Positions 2,983 through 62,496 of a stretch of DNA of 64,000 nucleotides are shown one piece after another. The position numbers and the translations under genes are program-made. Below the pieces are notes generated by a model. That model was not told the DNA's origin. It did no database searches and worked only from the letters and a program-made list of their open reading frames with translations. Source of the stretch: Escherichia coli (GTDB taxonomy: Bacteria > Pseudomonadota > Gammaproteobacteria > Enterobacterales > Enterobacteriaceae); assembly GCF_024298765.1 (NCBI RefSeq), contig NZ_CP101210.1, one strand, 5' to 3'. Position 1 is the first letter of the stretch. Each line of letters starts with the position of its first letter.

Positions 2983-5181
2983 ATGTCAAAATTAAAAATT
3001 GCGGTTAGTGATTCTTGCCCGGACTGTTTTACCACGCAGCGAGAATGTATCTATATTAATGAAAACAGTAATATCGATGTGGCGGCAATAGTTTTATCGC
3101 TCAACGATGTTACACGCGGAAAACTCGATGAAATCGATGCCACGGGTTATGGCATCCCGGTATTTATTGCTACTGAAAATCAAGAACGTGTACCCGCAGA
3201 GTATTTGCCCCGTATTTCGGGTGTCTTTGAGAATTGCGAATCGCGACGAGAATTTTATGGTCGTCAGTTAGAAACCGCAGCCAGCCATTATGAAACGCAA
3301 CTGCGCCCGCCCTTCTTCCGCGCACTGGTCGATTATGTCAATCAGGGTAACAGCGCGTTTGATTGCCCCGGTCATCAGGGCGGCGAATTTTTCCGTCGCC
3401 ATCCCGCGGGGAATCAGTTTGTGGAATACTTTGGTGAGGCGCTGTTCCGTGCTGACTTGTGCAACGCCGACGTAGCGATGGGCGATCTGCTGATTCACGA
3501 AGGCGCGCCATGCATTGCACAGCAACATGCGGCAAAAGTGTTTAATGCCGATAAAACATACTTCGTTTTAAATGGCACTTCATCTTCTAACAAAGTGGTT
3601 TTAAACGCCCTGCTGACACCGGGTGATCTGGTGCTGTTTGACCGCAATAACCACAAATCTAACCACCACGGAGCGTTGCTACAGGCTGGCGCGACACCGG
3701 TTTATCTGGAAACCGCACGTAACCCGTATGGTTTTATCGGTGGTATTGACGCTCACTGTTTTGAAGAAAGTTACCTGCGTGAACTGATCGCGGAATTCGC
3801 ACCGCAGCGGGCAAAAGAGGCTCGTCCTTTCCGCCTCGCCGTTATTCAGCTAGGCACTTACGACGGTACGATTTATAACGCCCGTCAGGTGGTGGATAAA
3901 ATTGGTCATCTGTGTGACTACATCCTCTTTGACTCCGCATGGGTCGGCTATGAGCAGTTTATCCCGATGATGGCGGACTGTTCACCACTGTTGCTGGATC
4001 TTAATGAGAACGATCCGGGTATTCTGGTTACGCAATCTGTGCATAAACAGCAGGCTGGTTTTTCTCAGACTTCACAAATCCATAAAAAAGACAGCCATAT
4101 CAAAGGGCAACAGCGTTATGTACCGCACAAACGCATGAACAACGCCTTTATGATGCATGCCTCCACCAGCCCGTTCTATCCGCTGTTTGCCGCACTGGAT
4201 ATCAACGCCAAAATGCATGAAGGTGTCAGCGGTCGTAATATGTGGATGGATTGTGTGGTAAATGGCATTAATGCCCGCAAACTGATCCTCGATAACTGTC
4301 AGCATATTCGTCCATTCGTACCTGAACTGGTGGATGGTAAACCCTGGCAGTCGTATGAAACGGCGCAAATTGCGGTTGATCTGCGCTTCTTCCAGTTTGT
4401 ACCAGGTGAGCACTGGCATTCTTTTGAAGGCTATGCAGAGAATCAATACTTTGTCGATCCGTGCAAACTGTTGCTGACAACCCCAGGTATTGATGCACGT
4501 AACGGCGAATATGAAGCGTTCGGTGTACCCGCGACGATTCTTGCTAACTTCCTGCGCGAAAATGGCGTAGTGCCGGAAAAATGCGATCTTAACTCCATCC
4601 TCTTTCTGCTGACTCCGGCAGAAGATATGGCCAAACTTCAGCAACTTGTTGCTCTGCTGGTACGCTTCGAAAAACTGCTTGAGTCCGACGCGCCATTATC
4701 AGAAGTACTGCCTTCCATCTACAAACAGCATGAAGAGCGCTACACCGGTTATACCCTGCGTCAGTTGTGTCAGGAAATGCATGATTTGTATGCCCGTCAC
4801 AACGTGAAACAACTGCAAAAAGAGATGTTCCGTAAGGAACACTTCCCACGCGTAAGCATGAATCCACAAGAAGCCAACTACGCCTATTTACGCGGTGAAG
4901 TGGAGCTGGTTCGTCTGCCGGATGCAGAAGGCCGTATCGCTGCCGAAGGTGCGCTTCCTTATCCTCCGGGTGTGCTGTGTGTTGTTCCGGGTGAAATCTG
5001 GGGTGGTGCTGTTCTGCGTTACTTCAGCGCTCTGGAAGAAGGGATCAACCTGCTGCCAGGTTTTGCACCAGAGCTGCAGGGTGTCTATATCGAAGAACAT
5101 GATGGTCGTAAGCAAGTTTGGTGCTATGTCATCAAGCCTCGTGATGCGCAAAGCACCCTGTTGAAAGGGGAAAAATTATGA
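2983..5181 (+). CDS. speF: Inducible ornithine decarboxylase SpeF (732 aa)
   Basis: Large fold-type I PLP decarboxylase; start taken at MSKLKIAV with RBS aagaga upstream, not the extended ORF-track start at 2905. Confidence 0.95.
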   Translation: MSKLKIAVSDSCPDCFTTQRECIYINENSNIDVAAIVLSLNDVTRGKLDEIDATGYGIPVFIATENQERVPAEYLPRISGVFENCESRREFYGRQLETAASHYETQLRPPFFRALVDYVNQGNSAFDCPGHQGGEFFRRHPAGNQFVEYFGEALFRADLCNADVAMGDLLIHEGAPCIAQQHAAKVFNADKTYFVLNGTSSSNKVVLNALLTPGDLVLFDRNNHKSNHHGALLQAGATPVYLETARNPYGFIGGIDAHCFEESYLRELIAEFAPQRAKEARPFRLAVIQLGTYDGTIYNARQVVDKIGHLCDYILFDSAWVGYEQFIPMMADCSPLLLDLNENDPGILVTQSVHKQQAGFSQTSQIHKKDSHIKGQQRYVPHKRMNNAFMMHASTSPFYPLFAALDINAKMHEGVSGRNMWMDCVVNGINARKLILDNCQHIRPFVPELVDGKPWQSYETAQIAVDLRFFQFVPGEHWHSFEGYAENQYFVDPCKLLLTTPGIDARNGEYEAFGVPATILANFLRENGVVPEKCDLNSILFLLTPAEDMAKLQQLVALLVRFEKLLESDAPLSEVLPSIYKQHEERYTGYTLRQLCQEMHDLYARHNVKQLQKEMFRKEHFPRVSMNPQEANYAYLRGEVELVRLPDAEGRIAAEGALPYPPGVLCVVPGEIWGGAVLRYFSALEEGINLLPGFAPELQGVYIEEHDGRKQVWCYVIKPRDAQSTLLKGEKL

Positions 5182-6497
5182 GTCAGGCTAAATCGAATAA
5201 GATGGGCGTCGTTCAGTTAACCATACTGACGATGGTCAACATGATGGGCTCCGGTATCATCATGCTGCCGACAAAGCTTGCCGAAGTTGGGACAATCTCA
5301 ATTATCTCCTGGCTGGTGACAGCCGTAGGCTCAATGGCACTGGCATGGGCATTCGCAAAATGCGGTATGTTCAGCCGTAAATCAGGCGGTATGGGCGGTT
5401 ATGCGGAGTATGCTTTCGGTAAATCCGGGAACTTTATGGCGAACTACACCTACGGTGTCTCGCTGCTGATTGCTAACGTCGCGATTGCTATTTCGGCGGT
5501 TGGTTACGGCACCGAACTGCTCGGCGCGAGTTTGTCGCCAGTGCAGATTGGTCTTGCGACCATCGGAGTGCTGTGGATTTGTACCGTGGCTAACTTTGGT
5601 GGTGCGCGCATTACCGGGCAAATCAGTAGCATTACTGTGTGGGGGGTCATTATTCCGGTCGTCGGTCTGTGCATTATCGGCTGGTTCTGGTTTAGCCCGA
5701 CGCTATACGCTAACTCATGGAACCCGCACCATGTGCCGTTCTTTAGCGCTGTAGGTTCTTCCATCGCCATGACGTTGTGGGCTTTCCTCGGTCTGGAGTC
5801 AGCCTGTGCCAACGCCGAAGTAGTTGAAAACCCGGAACGTAACGTGCCGATTGCAGTTCTTGGCGGTACTTTAGGTGCGGCGGTGATTTATATCGTCTCC
5901 ACCAACGTGATTGCAGGGATAGTGCCTAATATGGAGCTGGCAAATTCAACGGCACCATTTGGCCTGACTTTCGCACAGATGTTCACGCCAGAAGTGGGTA
6001 AAGTCATTATGGCGCTGATGGTGATGTCCTGCTGCGGTTCACTGCTTGGCTGGCAGTTCACCATTGCCCAGGTGTTTAAATCTTCATCTGATGAAGGCTA
6101 CTTCCCTAAAATTTTCTCCCGTGTAACCAAAGTGGATGCACCGGTTCAGGGAATGTTGACCATTGTGATTATTCAGAGTGGATTGGCACTGATGACCATT
6201 AGCCCGTCACTGAACAGCCAGTTCAACGTGCTGGTTAACCTGGCCGTGGTGACCAATATCATTCCGTATATTCTGTCGATGGCAGCATTAGTCATTATTC
6301 AGCAGGTCGCTAATGTGCCACCATCAAAAGCGAAAGTAGCAAACTTTGTTGCCTTTGTTGGTGCGATGTACAGTTTCTATGCGCTGTACTCATCCGGGGA
6401 AGAAGCCATGCTGTACGGTTCCATCGTGACCTTCCTTGGTTGGACACTGTATGGTCTGGTCTCACCACGCTTTGAACTGAAAAATAAACACGGTTAA
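5178..6497 (+). CDS. potE: Putrescine-ornithine antiporter PotE
   Basis: 439-aa polytopic APC-family transporter; 4-bp overlap with the speF stop. Confidence 0.95.
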   Translation: MSQAKSNKMGVVQLTILTMVNMMGSGIIMLPTKLAEVGTISIISWLVTAVGSMALAWAFAKCGMFSRKSGGMGGYAEYAFGKSGNFMANYTYGVSLLIANVAIAISAVGYGTELLGASLSPVQIGLATIGVLWICTVANFGGARITGQISSITVWGVIIPVVGLCIIGWFWFSPTLYANSWNPHHVPFFSAVGSSIAMTLWAFLGLESACANAEVVENPERNVPIAVLGGTLGAAVIYIVSTNVIAGIVPNMELANSTAPFGLTFAQMFTPEVGKVIMALMVMSCCGSLLGWQFTIAQVFKSSSDEGYFPKIFSRVTKVDAPVQGMLTIVIIQSGLALMTISPSLNSQFNVLVNLAVVTNIIPYILSMAALVIIQQVANVPPSKAKVANFVAFVGAMYSFYALYSSGEEAMLYGSIVTFLGWTLYGLVSPRFELKNKHG

Positions 6498-58256: not shown

Positions 58257-59051
58257 TCATAATAATTGCGGCGGCGCAAAGCGACGGTTGTTTAAAACGG
58301 GAAGTTGCGCGCGCACCTGACGCACACGTTCGGGCGTCACTTCCGCCATAATGAGTGCAGGCATTTCTGACGCTGCCGCAATGGTGACGCCAAAGGGATC
58401 TATAATTCGGCTTTGCCCGATATTTTTGTTCCCGCACTCCCCCGCCGCCACCATATAACAGGTGGTATCCAGCGCACGAGCGGCAAGCAACGTTGACCAG
58501 TGATGCTCTTTGAGCGGCCCACGAACCCAGGCGGCAGGAAGTACCAGGATTTCAGCTCCCTGTAATGCCTGTGCCAGCGCCAGCTCTGGAAAGCGTAAGT
58601 CATAACAGGTCATCAGACCGACCTTCATCCCTTCCACCTCCAGTAACGGAGCTATTTCATTACCAGCATCAACATGGCGTGATTCCTGAATGGCAAATGC
58701 ATCATAGAGATGCAGTTTGGCATAACGGGCGACGATGTTTCCTGCCTGTAGCGCCACCAGCATATTCCATGCGCGCCCCGGCGTTGAAGGAACATGAATC
58801 GTCAGAATTGTCGTCATCATGTTACGTTTACTTTCTCGCCGTAAACGTCCGAGGAATTCGCCTTCCAGCAGCTGTGCTGATTTAACCGATAGATCTGCAT
58901 CATGATCATCGCGCGCCAACAATGCTTCCGGCAGGACAAACAGCGAAACGTCGTTTTCCGCCGCCTGCGCCATCAACGAGGCACAAATCTCAGCGTTCTT
59001 TTCCCACACAGATGTAACAGCAAACTGTCCTGCGGCAACCAGCATTGCCAC
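58257..59051 (-). CDS. ybeM: C-N hydrolase (nitrilase-superfamily) amidase, YbeM-like, intact
   Basis: 264-aa uninterrupted ORF; catalytic Cys in the GLMTCYD context. Confidence 0.8.
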
Positions 59052-59140: not shown

Positions 59141-59524
59141 GTGTTACAACTTCTTTTAGCAGTTTTTATTGGCGGTGGTACGGGAAGCGTGGCGAGATGG
59201 CTGTTAAGTATGCGATTTAACCCGCTGCATCAAGCGATTCCGTTGGGGACGCTGGCTGCAAACCTGATTGGGGCATTCATCATAGGAATGGGATTCGCCT
59301 GGTTTAGCAGGATGACGAACATTGATCCAGTGTGGAAAGTATTAATCACCACCGGATTTTGTGGCGGTCTAACAACCTTCTCAACATTTTCGGCAGAAGT
59401 GGTGTTTTTGTTACAAGAGGGCCGCTTTGGCTGGGCGTTACTGAACGTTTTCGTCAACCTTTTGGGGTCTTTTGCCATGACCGCACTGGCTTTCTGGCTG
59501 TTTTCCGCCTCAACCGCACACTAA
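59141..59524 (+). CDS. crcB: Fluoride channel CrcB (Fluc)
   Basis: 127 aa, four TM segments. Confidence 0.9.
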
Positions 59525-59528
59525 AGAC

Positions 59529-59559
59529 CAAAAAAAACCCGCTGATTAAGCGGGTTTTG
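59529..59559. terminator. Bidirectional terminator between crcB and cspE
   Basis: Hairpin aacccgct-gatta-agcgggtt flanked by A and T runs. Confidence 0.7.
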
Positions 59560-59577
59560 AATTCTTGCTGACGTATC

Positions 59578-59787
59578 TTACAGAGCGATTACGTTTGCAG
59601 CAGAAGGGCCTTTGGCACCGTTAGTGATTTCGAACTCTACGCGCTGACCTTCAGCAAGAGTTTTAAAACCATTAGTCTGGATTGCAGAGAAGTGTACGAA
59701 CACGTCTTTGCTGCCGTCTTCCGGAGTAATGAAACCGAATCCTTTGGACTCATTAAACCACTTAACGTTACCTTTAATCTTAGACAT
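59578..59787 (-). CDS. cspE: Cold-shock-domain protein CspE (69 aa)
   Basis: [20 protein letters not shown]... with RNP motifs; ORF-track start is extended. Confidence 0.95.
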
Positions 59788-59961
59788 CAAAATTACCTTT
59801 ACATGAAAAATAGACACAAATGCTGTGTCGGTTACCAGTACACCAATTGTGGTACGCTTTGTCCAGTGCAACTTTACTAAAAAGTGATAAAAGTCGCGTT
59901 ATTTTTGATGTTAATTATTTTACTCATTGATTTTAAAGAGTTTACTAAAATTTCATTTGTC

Positions 59962-60522
59962 TCAAAACTGAAAGCGCATCCAGGCAAAGTACACATTGCC
60001 ATTGTTATAGGTACCCGGAATGTAGGTCATCTGAAAAGTCACTGGACCATAACCCACAGAGGCCAATGGCAGTAGAACCGGGAGAGGGATGTAATTCCAG
60101 TTATCGCGTGCCGTTACGCCAGCGGTGAATCCCAGTCCTAAATGAAAATTTTCATCTGCCAGCGGTCGCCAGGTACTTTCCCATCCGTATCCGGCAATCG
60201 GTTCCCATTTGTTCCACGAGTCCTTAAATGCCATGGCATACAGGCCATGCCAGTTTCCTTTTTCATCCCAACGCGACTGACCAAAACCGCCACCCCACGG
60301 TCGCTCGTTATAGCGATCGGTTTTTTCTTTGTCGTAAGCGAAACGTGCATGCCAGGTGATGGCAGGAATATATAAATCATAATGTTCAGGCTGTTGCCAG
60401 GTTTGTGCAATATTTTCTCTAAACGTTGTCATCCACTCATCTGCGTTAGCAAAAACTTTACCAACGCTGATTAACTGAACAAAAACAAAGGAAAAGATAG
60501 CGACATATTTACTCACGTTCAT
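59962..60522 (-). CDS. pagP: Lipid A palmitoyltransferase PagP (186 aa)
   Basis: Signal peptide plus outer-membrane beta-barrel ending ...WMRFQF. Confidence 0.9.
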
Positions 60523-61007
60523 TTGTGACCATAAAACATTTATCAAAAATCTACTACTAGCATAGCAAAGCTACAATTAACATAACCTTAATAGCCCCAA
60601 CATAAAGAATAATCTGAATAGCTGCTCTATTTATTTCCGCTTGTTTAAGTTAAATATTTCCGCGCATCGATTAAAGATGATGCGTCGTTTTCTGCGATGG
60701 GAATAGTCAAAAAAGAAAAATCAAGTCTTTTTTGATGACAAAATGCAATCAAGGAAAAATTATTTTATTTTTTAACGAGATACAACAATCATCTTAACGA
60801 AGTATATAATATATATCGTCAACCTATGCTCATATTAGATTATTTTTTGAGCGCACAGCCGCAGCTAACACCATTGCAATTAACAAATTTGCATCAATCC
60901 ACCATCAATTTACACACATTATTATGTGATAATTGCCAACCGCTAAATATGCGTTTTGTTATCTATGTATAAAAACAGCAACTTCAATGTCTTAATGGCA
61001 GTTTTTC

Positions 61008-61021
61008 TTGATTTTAATCAG
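61008..61021. promoter_or_regulatory. Candidate FNR site upstream of dcuC
   Basis: TTGATtttaATCAg, 9 of 10 matches to TTGAT-N4-ATCAA, about 90 bp upstream of the dcuC ATG. Confidence 0.45.
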
Positions 61022-61110
61022 CATTTATCGCCAATTTATTGGGCATATTTTTTCCTTAAGCTTTAGGAATTTTTTATTATTTACTTTGGGGCCTGGAGAC
61101 AGGAAAAATT

Positions 61111-62496
61111 ATGCTGACATTCATTGAACTCCTTATTGGGGTTGTGGTTATTGTGGGTGTAGCTCGCTACATCATTAAAGGGTATTCCGCCACTGGCGTG
61201 TTATTTGTCGGTGGCCTGTTATTGCTGATTATCAGTGCCATTATGGGGCACAAAGTGTTACCGTCCAGCCAGGCTTCAACAGGCTACAGCGCCACGGATA
61301 TCGTTGAATACGTTAAAATATTGCTAATGAGCCGCGGCGGCGACCTCGGCATGATGATTATGATGCTGTGTGGCTTTGCCGCTTACATGACCCATATCGG
61401 CGCGAATGATATGGTGGTCAAGCTGGCGTCAAAACCATTGCAGTATATTAACTCCCCTTACCTGCTGATGATTGCCGCCTATTTTGTCGCCTGTCTGATG
61501 TCTCTGGCCGTCTCTTCCGCGACCGGTCTGGGTGTTTTGCTGATGGCAACCCTGTTTCCGGTGATGGTAAACGTTGGTATCAGCCGTGGTGCAGCTGCTG
61601 CTATTTGTGCCTCCCCGGCGGCGATTATTCTCGCACCGACTTCAGGGGATGTGGTGCTGGCGGCGCAGGCTTCCGAAATGTCGCTGATTGACTTCGCCTT
61701 CAAAACGACGCTGCCTATCTCAATTGCTGCAATTATCGGCATGGCGATCGCCCACTTCTTCTGGCAACGTTATCTGGATAAAAAAGAGCACATCTCTCAT
61801 GAAATGTTAGATGTCAGTGAAATCACCACCACTGCTCCTGCGTTTTATGCCATTTTGCCGTTCACGCCGATCATCGGAGTGCTGATTTTTGACGGCAAAT
61901 GGGGTCCGCAATTACACATCATCACTATTCTGGTGATTTGTATGCTGATTGCCTCCATTCTGGAGTTCATCCGCAGCTTTAATACCCAGAAAGTTTTCTC
62001 TGGTCTGGAAGTGGCTTATCGCGGGATGGCCGATGCGTTTGCTAACGTGGTGATGCTGCTGGTTGCCGCTGGGGTATTCGCTCAGGGGCTTAGCACCATC
62101 GGCTTTATTCAAAGTCTGATTTCTATCGCCACCTCGTTTGGTTCGGCGAGTATCATCCTGATGCTGGTATTAGTGATCCTGACAATGCTGGCGGCAGTCA
62201 CGACCGGTTCAGGCAATGCGCCGTTTTATGCGTTTGTTGAGATGATCCCGAAACTGGCGCACTCTTCCGGCATTAACCCGGCGTATTTGACTATCCCAAT
62301 GCTGCAGGCGTCAAACCTCGGCCGTACCCTGTCACCCGTTTCTGGCGTAGTCGTTGCGGTTGCCGGGATGGCGAAGATCTCACCATTTGAAGTCGTAAAA
62401 CGCACCTCGGTGCCGGTGCTTGTTGGGCTGGTGATTGTTATCGTTGCTACAGAGCTGATGGTGCCAGGAACGGCAGCCGCGGTCACAGGCAAGTAA
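61111..62496 (+). CDS. dcuC: Anaerobic C4-dicarboxylate transporter DcuC
   Basis: 461-aa polytopic transporter. Confidence 0.9.
   Translation: MLTFIELLIGVVVIVGVARYIIKGYSATGVLFVGGLLLLIISAIMGHKVLPSSQASTGYSATDIVEYVKILLMSRGGDLGMMIMMLCGFAAYMTHIGANDMVVKLASKPLQYINSPYLLMIAAYFVACLMSLAVSSATGLGVLLMATLFPVMVNVGISRGAAAAICASPAAIILAPTSGDVVLAAQASEMSLIDFAFKTTLPISIAAIIGMAIAHFFWQRYLDKKEHISHEMLDVSEITTTAPAFYAILPFTPIIGVLIFDGKWGPQLHIITILVICMLIASILEFIRSFNTQKVFSGLEVAYRGMADAFANVVMLLVAAGVFAQGLSTIGFIQSLISIATSFGSASIILMLVLVILTMLAAVTTGSGNAPFYAFVEMIPKLAHSSGINPAYLTIPMLQASNLGRTLSPVSGVVVAVAGMAKISPFEVVKRTSVPVLVGLVIVIVATELMVPGTAAAVTGK

Follow-up and report, generated by a model that had tools for sequence, protein, structure and literature searches.

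We analysed a window of 64,000 nucleotides of Escherichia coli DNA, at the end of which the genes crcB (59141–59524, + strand), cspE (59578–59787, − strand), pagP, dcuC, dpiA and dpiB follow one another. The identity of the locus was established from the translations of its open reading frames (ORFs), from E. coli strain 104, which is 100% identical to it, and from the orthologous region of MG1655. The gene for the lipid A palmitoyltransferase, pagP (59962–60522, − strand), was assigned from the ORFs and from the annotation of MG1655 and strain 104. The gene for the anaerobic C4-dicarboxylate transporter, dcuC (61111–62496, + strand), is intact and codes for 461 aa. The two genes are divergent, and their limits in the annotation of strain 104 and MG1655 leave a non-coding gap of 588 bp between them (60523–61110). 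The gap has the same length in MG1655, where dcuC lies at 654,583–655,968 (− strand) and pagP at 656,557–657,117 (+ strand), and the record holds no annotated feature in between.

An earlier, sequence-only reading of this DNA had described a long AT-rich gap of about 560 bp that begins at 60547. The long AT-rich gap was confirmed, and the two figures have to be corrected to 588 bp and 60523. The start at 60547 was obtained because a TTG-extended ORF had been followed, while the true ATG of pagP is at 60522. The GC content of the gap is 0.31 versus 0.507 for the whole window, and 200-bp windows inside the gap go down to 0.29–0.34. Its length had also been called unusual, and this holds for the window: the gap is the longest among 69 feature junctions, followed by one of 454 bp, and positive gaps have a median of 95 bp. 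The full-length gap is kept in 5375 of the 5426 complete E. coli genomes. Between the window and K-12, 5 of the 588 positions differ, none of which falls in the FNR site or in the predicted −10 element of dcuC. The repeats in the gap are short AT-rich pairs only, and no mobile-element remnants were found there by the repeat search.

Outside the gap, the ORF at 58257–59051 (− strand) codes for a ybeM-type deaminated glutathione amidase of 264 aa and is intact in the window, and likewise in strain 104. K-12 MG1655 and W3110 have a frameshifted pseudogene in its place.

FNR site and dcuC promoter

Anaerobic expression of dcuC is reportedly FNR-dependent, and the sequence-only reading had pointed out a near-consensus FNR motif about 90 bp upstream of the gene. 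This motif is present. The 14-mer TTGATTTTAATCAG at 61008–61021 matches TTGAT-N4-ATCAA at 9 of 10 positions, its centre lies 96.5 bp and its 3′ end 89 bp upstream of the dcuC ATG, and four E. coli phylogroup representatives share it without a change. With at most one mismatch allowed, the bare motif is matched 4 times in the window, where 2.68 matches are expected, and 27 of 100 shuffles reach that number. The motif alone is not beyond chance in the window, and these counts would be compatible with a functionless match in AT-rich DNA.

The coordinates of U00096.2 and U00096.3 differ by an offset that we take to be about 778 bp. When this version offset is applied to the MG1655 coordinates, the FNR site of the window falls at 655,280–655,293 in U00096.2. 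The K-12 FNR ChIP-seq peak assigned to dcuC by Myers et al. (2013; PMC3688515) has its summit at 655,298 (U00096.2), within about 11 bp of the site. The PWM site reported in the same study at 655,281 (U00096.2; 12.38 bits), CTGATTAAAATCAA, is the reverse complement of the 14-mer in the window. The peak was seen both in the wild type and in the hns/stpA double mutant, and no H-NS, Fis or IHF ChIP enrichment was recorded at the dcuC FNR site (Myers 2013, PMC3688515). In the same work, dcuC belongs to Category 1, the operons directly activated by FNR, and its expression was reduced in the fnr mutant (RNA-seq). The aerobic/anaerobic expression ratio was 0.05 for dcuC, which corresponds to an increase of about 20-fold under anaerobiosis, and 0.29 for pagP (crcA). 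Myers 2013 (PMC3688515) cites Zientz 1999 for the FNR-dependent anaerobic expression of dcuC. The dcuC of Zientz et al. 1999 and Myers 2013 (PMC3688515) is the same locus with the same site, and no substantive difference from the window was found. The anaerobic activation of dcuC which had been proposed from the motif is therefore borne out by a published ChIP-seq peak on the same 14-mer, by the Category 1 assignment and by the ratio of 0.05.

The conservation of the site was followed by scanning one genome per species, which gave 80 loci with DcuC orthologues in Enterobacteriaceae. In most of these loci pagP is divergent and lies upstream of dcuC, and the gap is about 280–900 bp long. In about 75 of the 80 species, exactly 22 nt separate TTGAT-N4-(A/G)TCAG from a downstream CAnATT, with GG before the hexamer. 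Unlike this fixed spacing, the distance from the FNR site to the ATG varies between 61 and 156 bp across the same species. We regard the FNR site as real because about 75 of 80 species keep it at a fixed spacing to the predicted −10 element and because its occupancy by ChIP-seq has been published. Together with the FNR-dependent expression, the same evidence refutes the idea of a chance match, to which we give practically no credit even though one-mismatch motifs are no commoner in the window than in shuffles.

A DcuC 92% identical to that of E. coli, with the enterobacterial FNR promoter upstream of its gene, is also encoded on a contig labelled Chryseobacterium sp. 18061 (CACSKA010000002.1). 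This assembly is probably mislabelled or contaminated.

In the window, the CAnATT hexamer reads CATATT, with GG before it (61044–61049, + strand), and its fixed spacing makes it the predicted −10 element of dcuC. If CAnATT is the −10 element, transcription would start near 61056 (61054–61058, + strand) and the FNR centre (61014.5) would lie at −41.5. This geometry would imply that the dcuC promoter belongs to class II, with the predicted start and the −41.5 position both derived from the distance between site and hexamer. An FNR site at −41.5 ± 4 was found in 19 of the 23 FNR-activated promoters with known transcription start site (TSS) in Myers 2013 (PMC3688515). Like the class II FNR promoters centred at −41.5 (dmsA, frdA, narG, yfiD, pykA), dcuC has a near-consensus site, ChIP occupancy and FNR-dependent anaerobic induction, as well as a predicted weak −10 element at the spacing which would give −41.5 and no recognisable −35 element. 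It differs from them in that its −41.5 is a predicted position and in that the right half-site ends with G (ATCAG) in nearly all species, whereas the consensus has A. The predicted dcuC promoter was not called by a generic promoter scan of the gap, which is expected for an activator-dependent promoter but lends it no support. The Shine-Dalgarno (SD) sequence AGGA (61101–61104, + strand), conserved within Escherichia, lies 6 nt before the ATG.

According to the mechanism we propose, [4Fe-4S]-FNR dimers would bind to TTGATTTTAATCAG under anaerobiosis, overlapping the −35 position of a promoter whose own −35 element is poor. The bound FNR would then recruit RNA polymerase to the promoter with the CATATT −10 element, and the transcript starting at about 61056 would carry a leader of 55 nt.

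In the list of Myers 2013 (PMC3688515), the entry for dcuC reads 'TSS not in peak region'. The sole sigma-70 ChIP peak listed for the gap in that study belongs to the pagP side, and the predicted core promoter of dcuC has no such entry. No start for dcuC or pagP was found in the supplements of Kim 2012, Ettwiller 2016 and Adams 2021 by gene name or expected coordinate. The Myers entry would fit a different arrangement, in which FNR binds at the site and the promoter is not of class II. The start of dcuC would then be distal, and FNR would act from a downstream or otherwise non-standard position or by relieving repression. Candidates for such a start are the sigma-70-like element ATGACA-17-AATTAT at 60735–60763 (+ strand), which is the only promoter-like match of the generic scan, and a conserved TATAAA at 60968–60973. 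A 14-nt arm at 61043–61056, able to pair with the SD/ATG region and transcribed only from an upstream start, would also find a role. However, an FNR site downstream of the start would repress, and dcuC is activated about 20-fold. The −35 of the element at 60735–60763 varies even within E. coli, and a distal start would leave unexplained why the 22 nt between FNR site and CAnATT are constant from genus to genus. On balance we consider such a start unlikely and keep the class II promoter with a predicted start near 61056 as the preferred reading.

Some details of the leader were observed in addition. The 14-nt arm at 61043–61056, which spans the predicted −10 element, shows 93% complementarity to the SD/ATG region of dcuC (61101–61114). 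Masking of the ribosome-binding site by this arm is possible only in transcripts that begin upstream of 61043. The 12-nt sequence AGGAAAAATTAT is directly repeated at 60752 and 61101.

The pagP promoter

At the other end of the gap, TATGCT (60559–60564, − strand) is the predicted −10 element of pagP. It aligns with the TATTAT −10 element of Salmonella, which would place the start of pagP near 60552. The sigma-70 ChIP peak of Myers 2013 (PMC3688515) at 655,742 (U00096.2) maps to about 60559 in the window, on the TATGCT hexamer. A PhoP-box-like repeat, TATTAA-GGTTA-TGTTAA (TATTAAGGTTATGTTAA; 60577–60593, − strand), lies 12 nt upstream of TATGCT and matches 9 of 12 positions of the pattern that was used, (T/G)GTTTA-N5-(T/G)GTTTA. 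The same repeat also fits the ArcA direct-repeat pattern at 9 of 10 positions in the motif scan. When the region was aligned with Salmonella and other genera, 60559–60610 came to lie opposite the Salmonella pagP PhoP box CTGTTTATAGTTTGTTAAG and the TATTAT −10 element. This Salmonella box has been DNase-footprinted (Zwir et al. 2012). A SlyA-like palindrome, TAGCAAAGCTA, which is TTAGCAAGCTAA with one extra base, was noticed by reading the sequence at 60563–60573; an ungapped scan of the gap for the SlyA consensus at ≥9/12 gave no match.

Several regulators of pagP have been published. Chalabaev 2014 reports that pagP depends on SlyA, with three putative sites for this regulator in its promoter, and that it is derepressed 18-fold in the hns deletion mutant. 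Induction of pagP in biofilms and by osmotic conditions requires RcsB and GadE (Szczesny 2018), and the RcsB-dependent induction was reported there without a mapped site. PhoP and EvgA are reported to act on pagP under Mg2+ limitation. The GC content of 0.31 and the published H-NS-dependent repression of pagP are those of an H-NS-silenced region, in which the role of H-NS is known from genetics.

We propose that the pagP end of the gap (60523 to about 60650) holds a weak promoter with the TATGCT −10 element and the PhoP-box-like repeat at the −35 position. On the published genetics, H-NS would silence this promoter, and SlyA, RcsB/GadE and PhoP (through EvgA) would act as counter-silencers or activators. 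The class to which it can be compared comprises the H-NS-silenced and counter-silenced promoters of the PhoP regulon, such as Salmonella pagP, pagC and ugtL and E. coli pagP (Chalabaev 2014; Szczesny 2018). The predicted box of E. coli pagP lies 12 nt from the −10 element, like architecture I/II, whereas the footprinted box of Salmonella pagP lies 23 nt away (architecture IV). The predicted E. coli box is also degenerate (9/12), unlike the footprinted one.

An RcsAB-box-like sequence, AAAGAATAATCTGA (11/14), was observed at 60604–60617, some 85 bp before the start codon of pagP. Citrobacter retains its core AATC(A/T)GA, which in Salmonella arizonae is changed by one base to AACCTGA.

Scans of the gap for CRP, NarL heptamer and IHF consensus sites gave nothing, and matches of the Fis-like and H-NS-like kind carry no information in DNA of 69% AT. 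A sigma-54 promoter was also considered, as in-vitro peaks of the RpoN holoenzyme and NtrC were reported by gSELEX (Shimada) at K-12 position 655,760 in the gap, about 60541 in the window. A sigma-54 scan of the gap (TGGCACG-N4-TTGCW, ≥9/12) returned no match, and the TGGCAG at 60995 does not have the −12 spacing that such a promoter needs. The mention in Zhao 2010 concerns dcuD and not dcuC. With no −24/−12 motif, this candidate was rejected, and the peaks were put down to in-vitro affinity for AT-rich DNA.

Sequence constraint and coding capacity of the gap

A constraint map of the gap was made by comparing the window with K-12, one B2 strain and one O157 strain, and the 4-fold degenerate sites of dcuC were used as the yardstick. 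These sites differ by 8–9%, which is above both flanks of the gap: the pagP-proximal 100–130 bp showed a divergence of 0–6% among the compared E. coli, and the 260 bp upstream of dcuC (60852–61110) one of 0–4%. Between them lies a hypervariable AT-rich core (60700–60850) with 18–24% divergence in 50-bp windows. When the window/K-12 type is compared with the B2 or O157 types, the divergence of the core is about twice that of the dcuC 4-fold sites, and the core is unalignable outside Escherichia. Judged by this yardstick, the roughly 260 bp upstream of dcuC are under purifying selection, and the middle of the gap behaves as an unconstrained or fast-evolving spacer.

The sequence-only reading had considered that the gap could hold additional regulatory sites. 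Owing to the low divergence of the outer parts, this idea is reasonable for the two flanks. It is borne out by the published regulators of pagP (H-NS, SlyA, RcsB/GadE and PhoP/EvgA) on one side and by the constrained 260 bp or so on the dcuC side.

On the dcuC side, a block upstream of the FNR site (60852–61000) combines low divergence among the phylogroups with conservation across the genus Escherichia, and is only patchily conserved outside it. It contains a tandem CATCAAT-N4-CATCAAT (60892–60898 and 60903–60909), which has an 11-bp phasing and a variable spacer and is found genus-wide in Escherichia. It also contains an ArcA-like direct repeat found by the motif scan, TGTTATCTATGTATAA (60957–60972). 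The arrangement TTTTGTTATC..GTATAAAAACAGCAAC..CAATG..TTAATG at 60953–60996 is likewise conserved across Escherichia. The block 60852–61000 probably carries extra sites that modulate dcuC. Deletion of arcA under anaerobic conditions lowered dcuC 4.1-fold and pagP 2.8-fold, and ArcA has no ChIP peak at the locus, yet a PWM site of at least 15 bits lies somewhere in the gap (Park 2013).

Within the predicted dcuC leader, a GAD-box-like sequence, TTAGGAATTTTTTATT, was observed at 61063–61078. It agrees with the core of the GadE/RcsB box at 14 of 16 positions, and within Escherichia it is conserved. A 14/20 match to the GAD box occurs in 45% of shuffles, and the 16-nt core, which was chosen post hoc, in 0.4% of Markov shuffles. 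We treat this candidate as a lead and not as a finding; a literature search found no link between GadE and dcuC.

It is conceivable, though rather improbable, that the block at 60852–61000 represents an unrecognised input through which another regulator would act on dcuC and perhaps also on pagP. The genus-restricted TTAGGAATTTTTTATT at 61063–61078 may be part of the same input. Candidate regulators would be the ArcA-to-GadE/RcsB acid/biofilm circuit or the neighbouring response regulator DpiA. If true, such an input would explain why deletion of arcA lowers dcuC and pagP together with gad/hde genes despite the missing ArcA ChIP peak. The need for GadE in the induction of pagP in biofilms would be explained as well.

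A small RNA in the gap had also been suggested. An unannotated transcript of this kind on the pagP strand is described for Shigella flexneri 301, where the 295-nt 'Ssr31', lying between pagP and dcuC, was a prediction positive by RT-PCR (Wang et al. 2016). A small protein might be encoded instead, as ORFs of 35–48 aa occur in the gap. The support for Ssr31 is RT-PCR only, without Northern blot or RACE (Wang 2016), which leaves room for a pagP leader or a read-through transcript. In the window, a search against Rfam at E ≤ 10 returned only noise inside the gap, and nothing is annotated there in MG1655, a heavily curated record. The terminator scan called a hairpin at 60662–60685 (+ strand), followed by CGTTTTCT, which is probably not functional. 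Its fold z-scores are −0.65 (+ strand) and −1.32 (− strand), those of the other segments tested range from −1.6 to +0.8, and its stem is disrupted in O157 and different in other Escherichia. The only promoter-like site (60735–60763) lies downstream of this only terminator-like hairpin, both on the + strand. O157, B2 or other Escherichia have lost the hairpin, the −35 of this promoter-like sequence and also the start codon (ATG) of the 48-aa ORF (60826–60972), and the only free room is the hypervariable core with its 18–24% divergence. With no Rfam family, MG1655 feature, conserved structure or promoter–terminator pair in the gap, the suggestion is unsupported, and we hold a small RNA or small protein to be very unlikely. 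The spacer from about 60660 to 60850 most likely encodes nothing and would be only H-NS-bindable, IS-permissive DNA.

Outside the gap, Rfam gave a match to the cspA thermoregulator at 59530–59888 (− strand; 123 bits, E 1.6e-32), over cspE and its 5′ leader. This match is expected, because cspE codes for a cold-shock-protein paralogue.

In our opinion, the gap is with high probability a shared control region, composed of a class II dcuC promoter, a constrained block upstream of it, a silenced pagP promoter and a spacer. It is an ordinary and already characterised region of this kind, as both the regulation of dcuC by FNR and that of pagP by several factors have been published. What is added here is the cross-genus spacing between the FNR site and the −10 element, compared over 80 species, and the predicted dcuC start at about 61056. 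Of the 588 bp, the constraint map marks two parts as functional, about 130 bp next to pagP and about 260 bp next to dcuC. The fast-evolving middle argues against a hidden gene and fits the recurrent targeting of the locus by IS5 and IS1. These increments are modest, and beyond housekeeping their significance is small.

Insertion elements and variation at the locus

The sequence-only reading mentioned IS insertions near dcuC in some K-12 lineages and saw none here. The locus in the window is indeed free of them, with dcuC intact (461 aa) and a gap of 588 bp as in MG1655. The remark is right for W3110, whose IS5 lies inside dcuC instead of adjacent to it. Insertions of IS5 into the gap arose repeatedly under kanamycin selection (Hoeksema 2018). 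In strain XH993, an IS1 lies beside a shortened pagP (1600–2400 of its locus). In strain MINF_8D (4150–5250 of its locus), an IS1 has taken the place of dcuC-dpiA-dpiB and of most of the gap, and pagP is joined to citC. IS events in the gap are rare.

The pagP homologue is apparently degraded next to an intact dcuC in Escherichia sp. MOD1-EC7003 (2015–2416) and E. coli SCPM-O-B-8794 (2021–2408), the degradation being read from a compressed or fragmented tblastn match.

The gap of the window is 99.15% identical to that of K-12, yet the dcuC of the window differs from that of K-12 at 7.6% of the 4-fold degenerate sites, as much as from that of B2 or O157. This difference suggests that the locus (60523–62496) is a mosaic, with a putative recombination junction near the start of dcuC.
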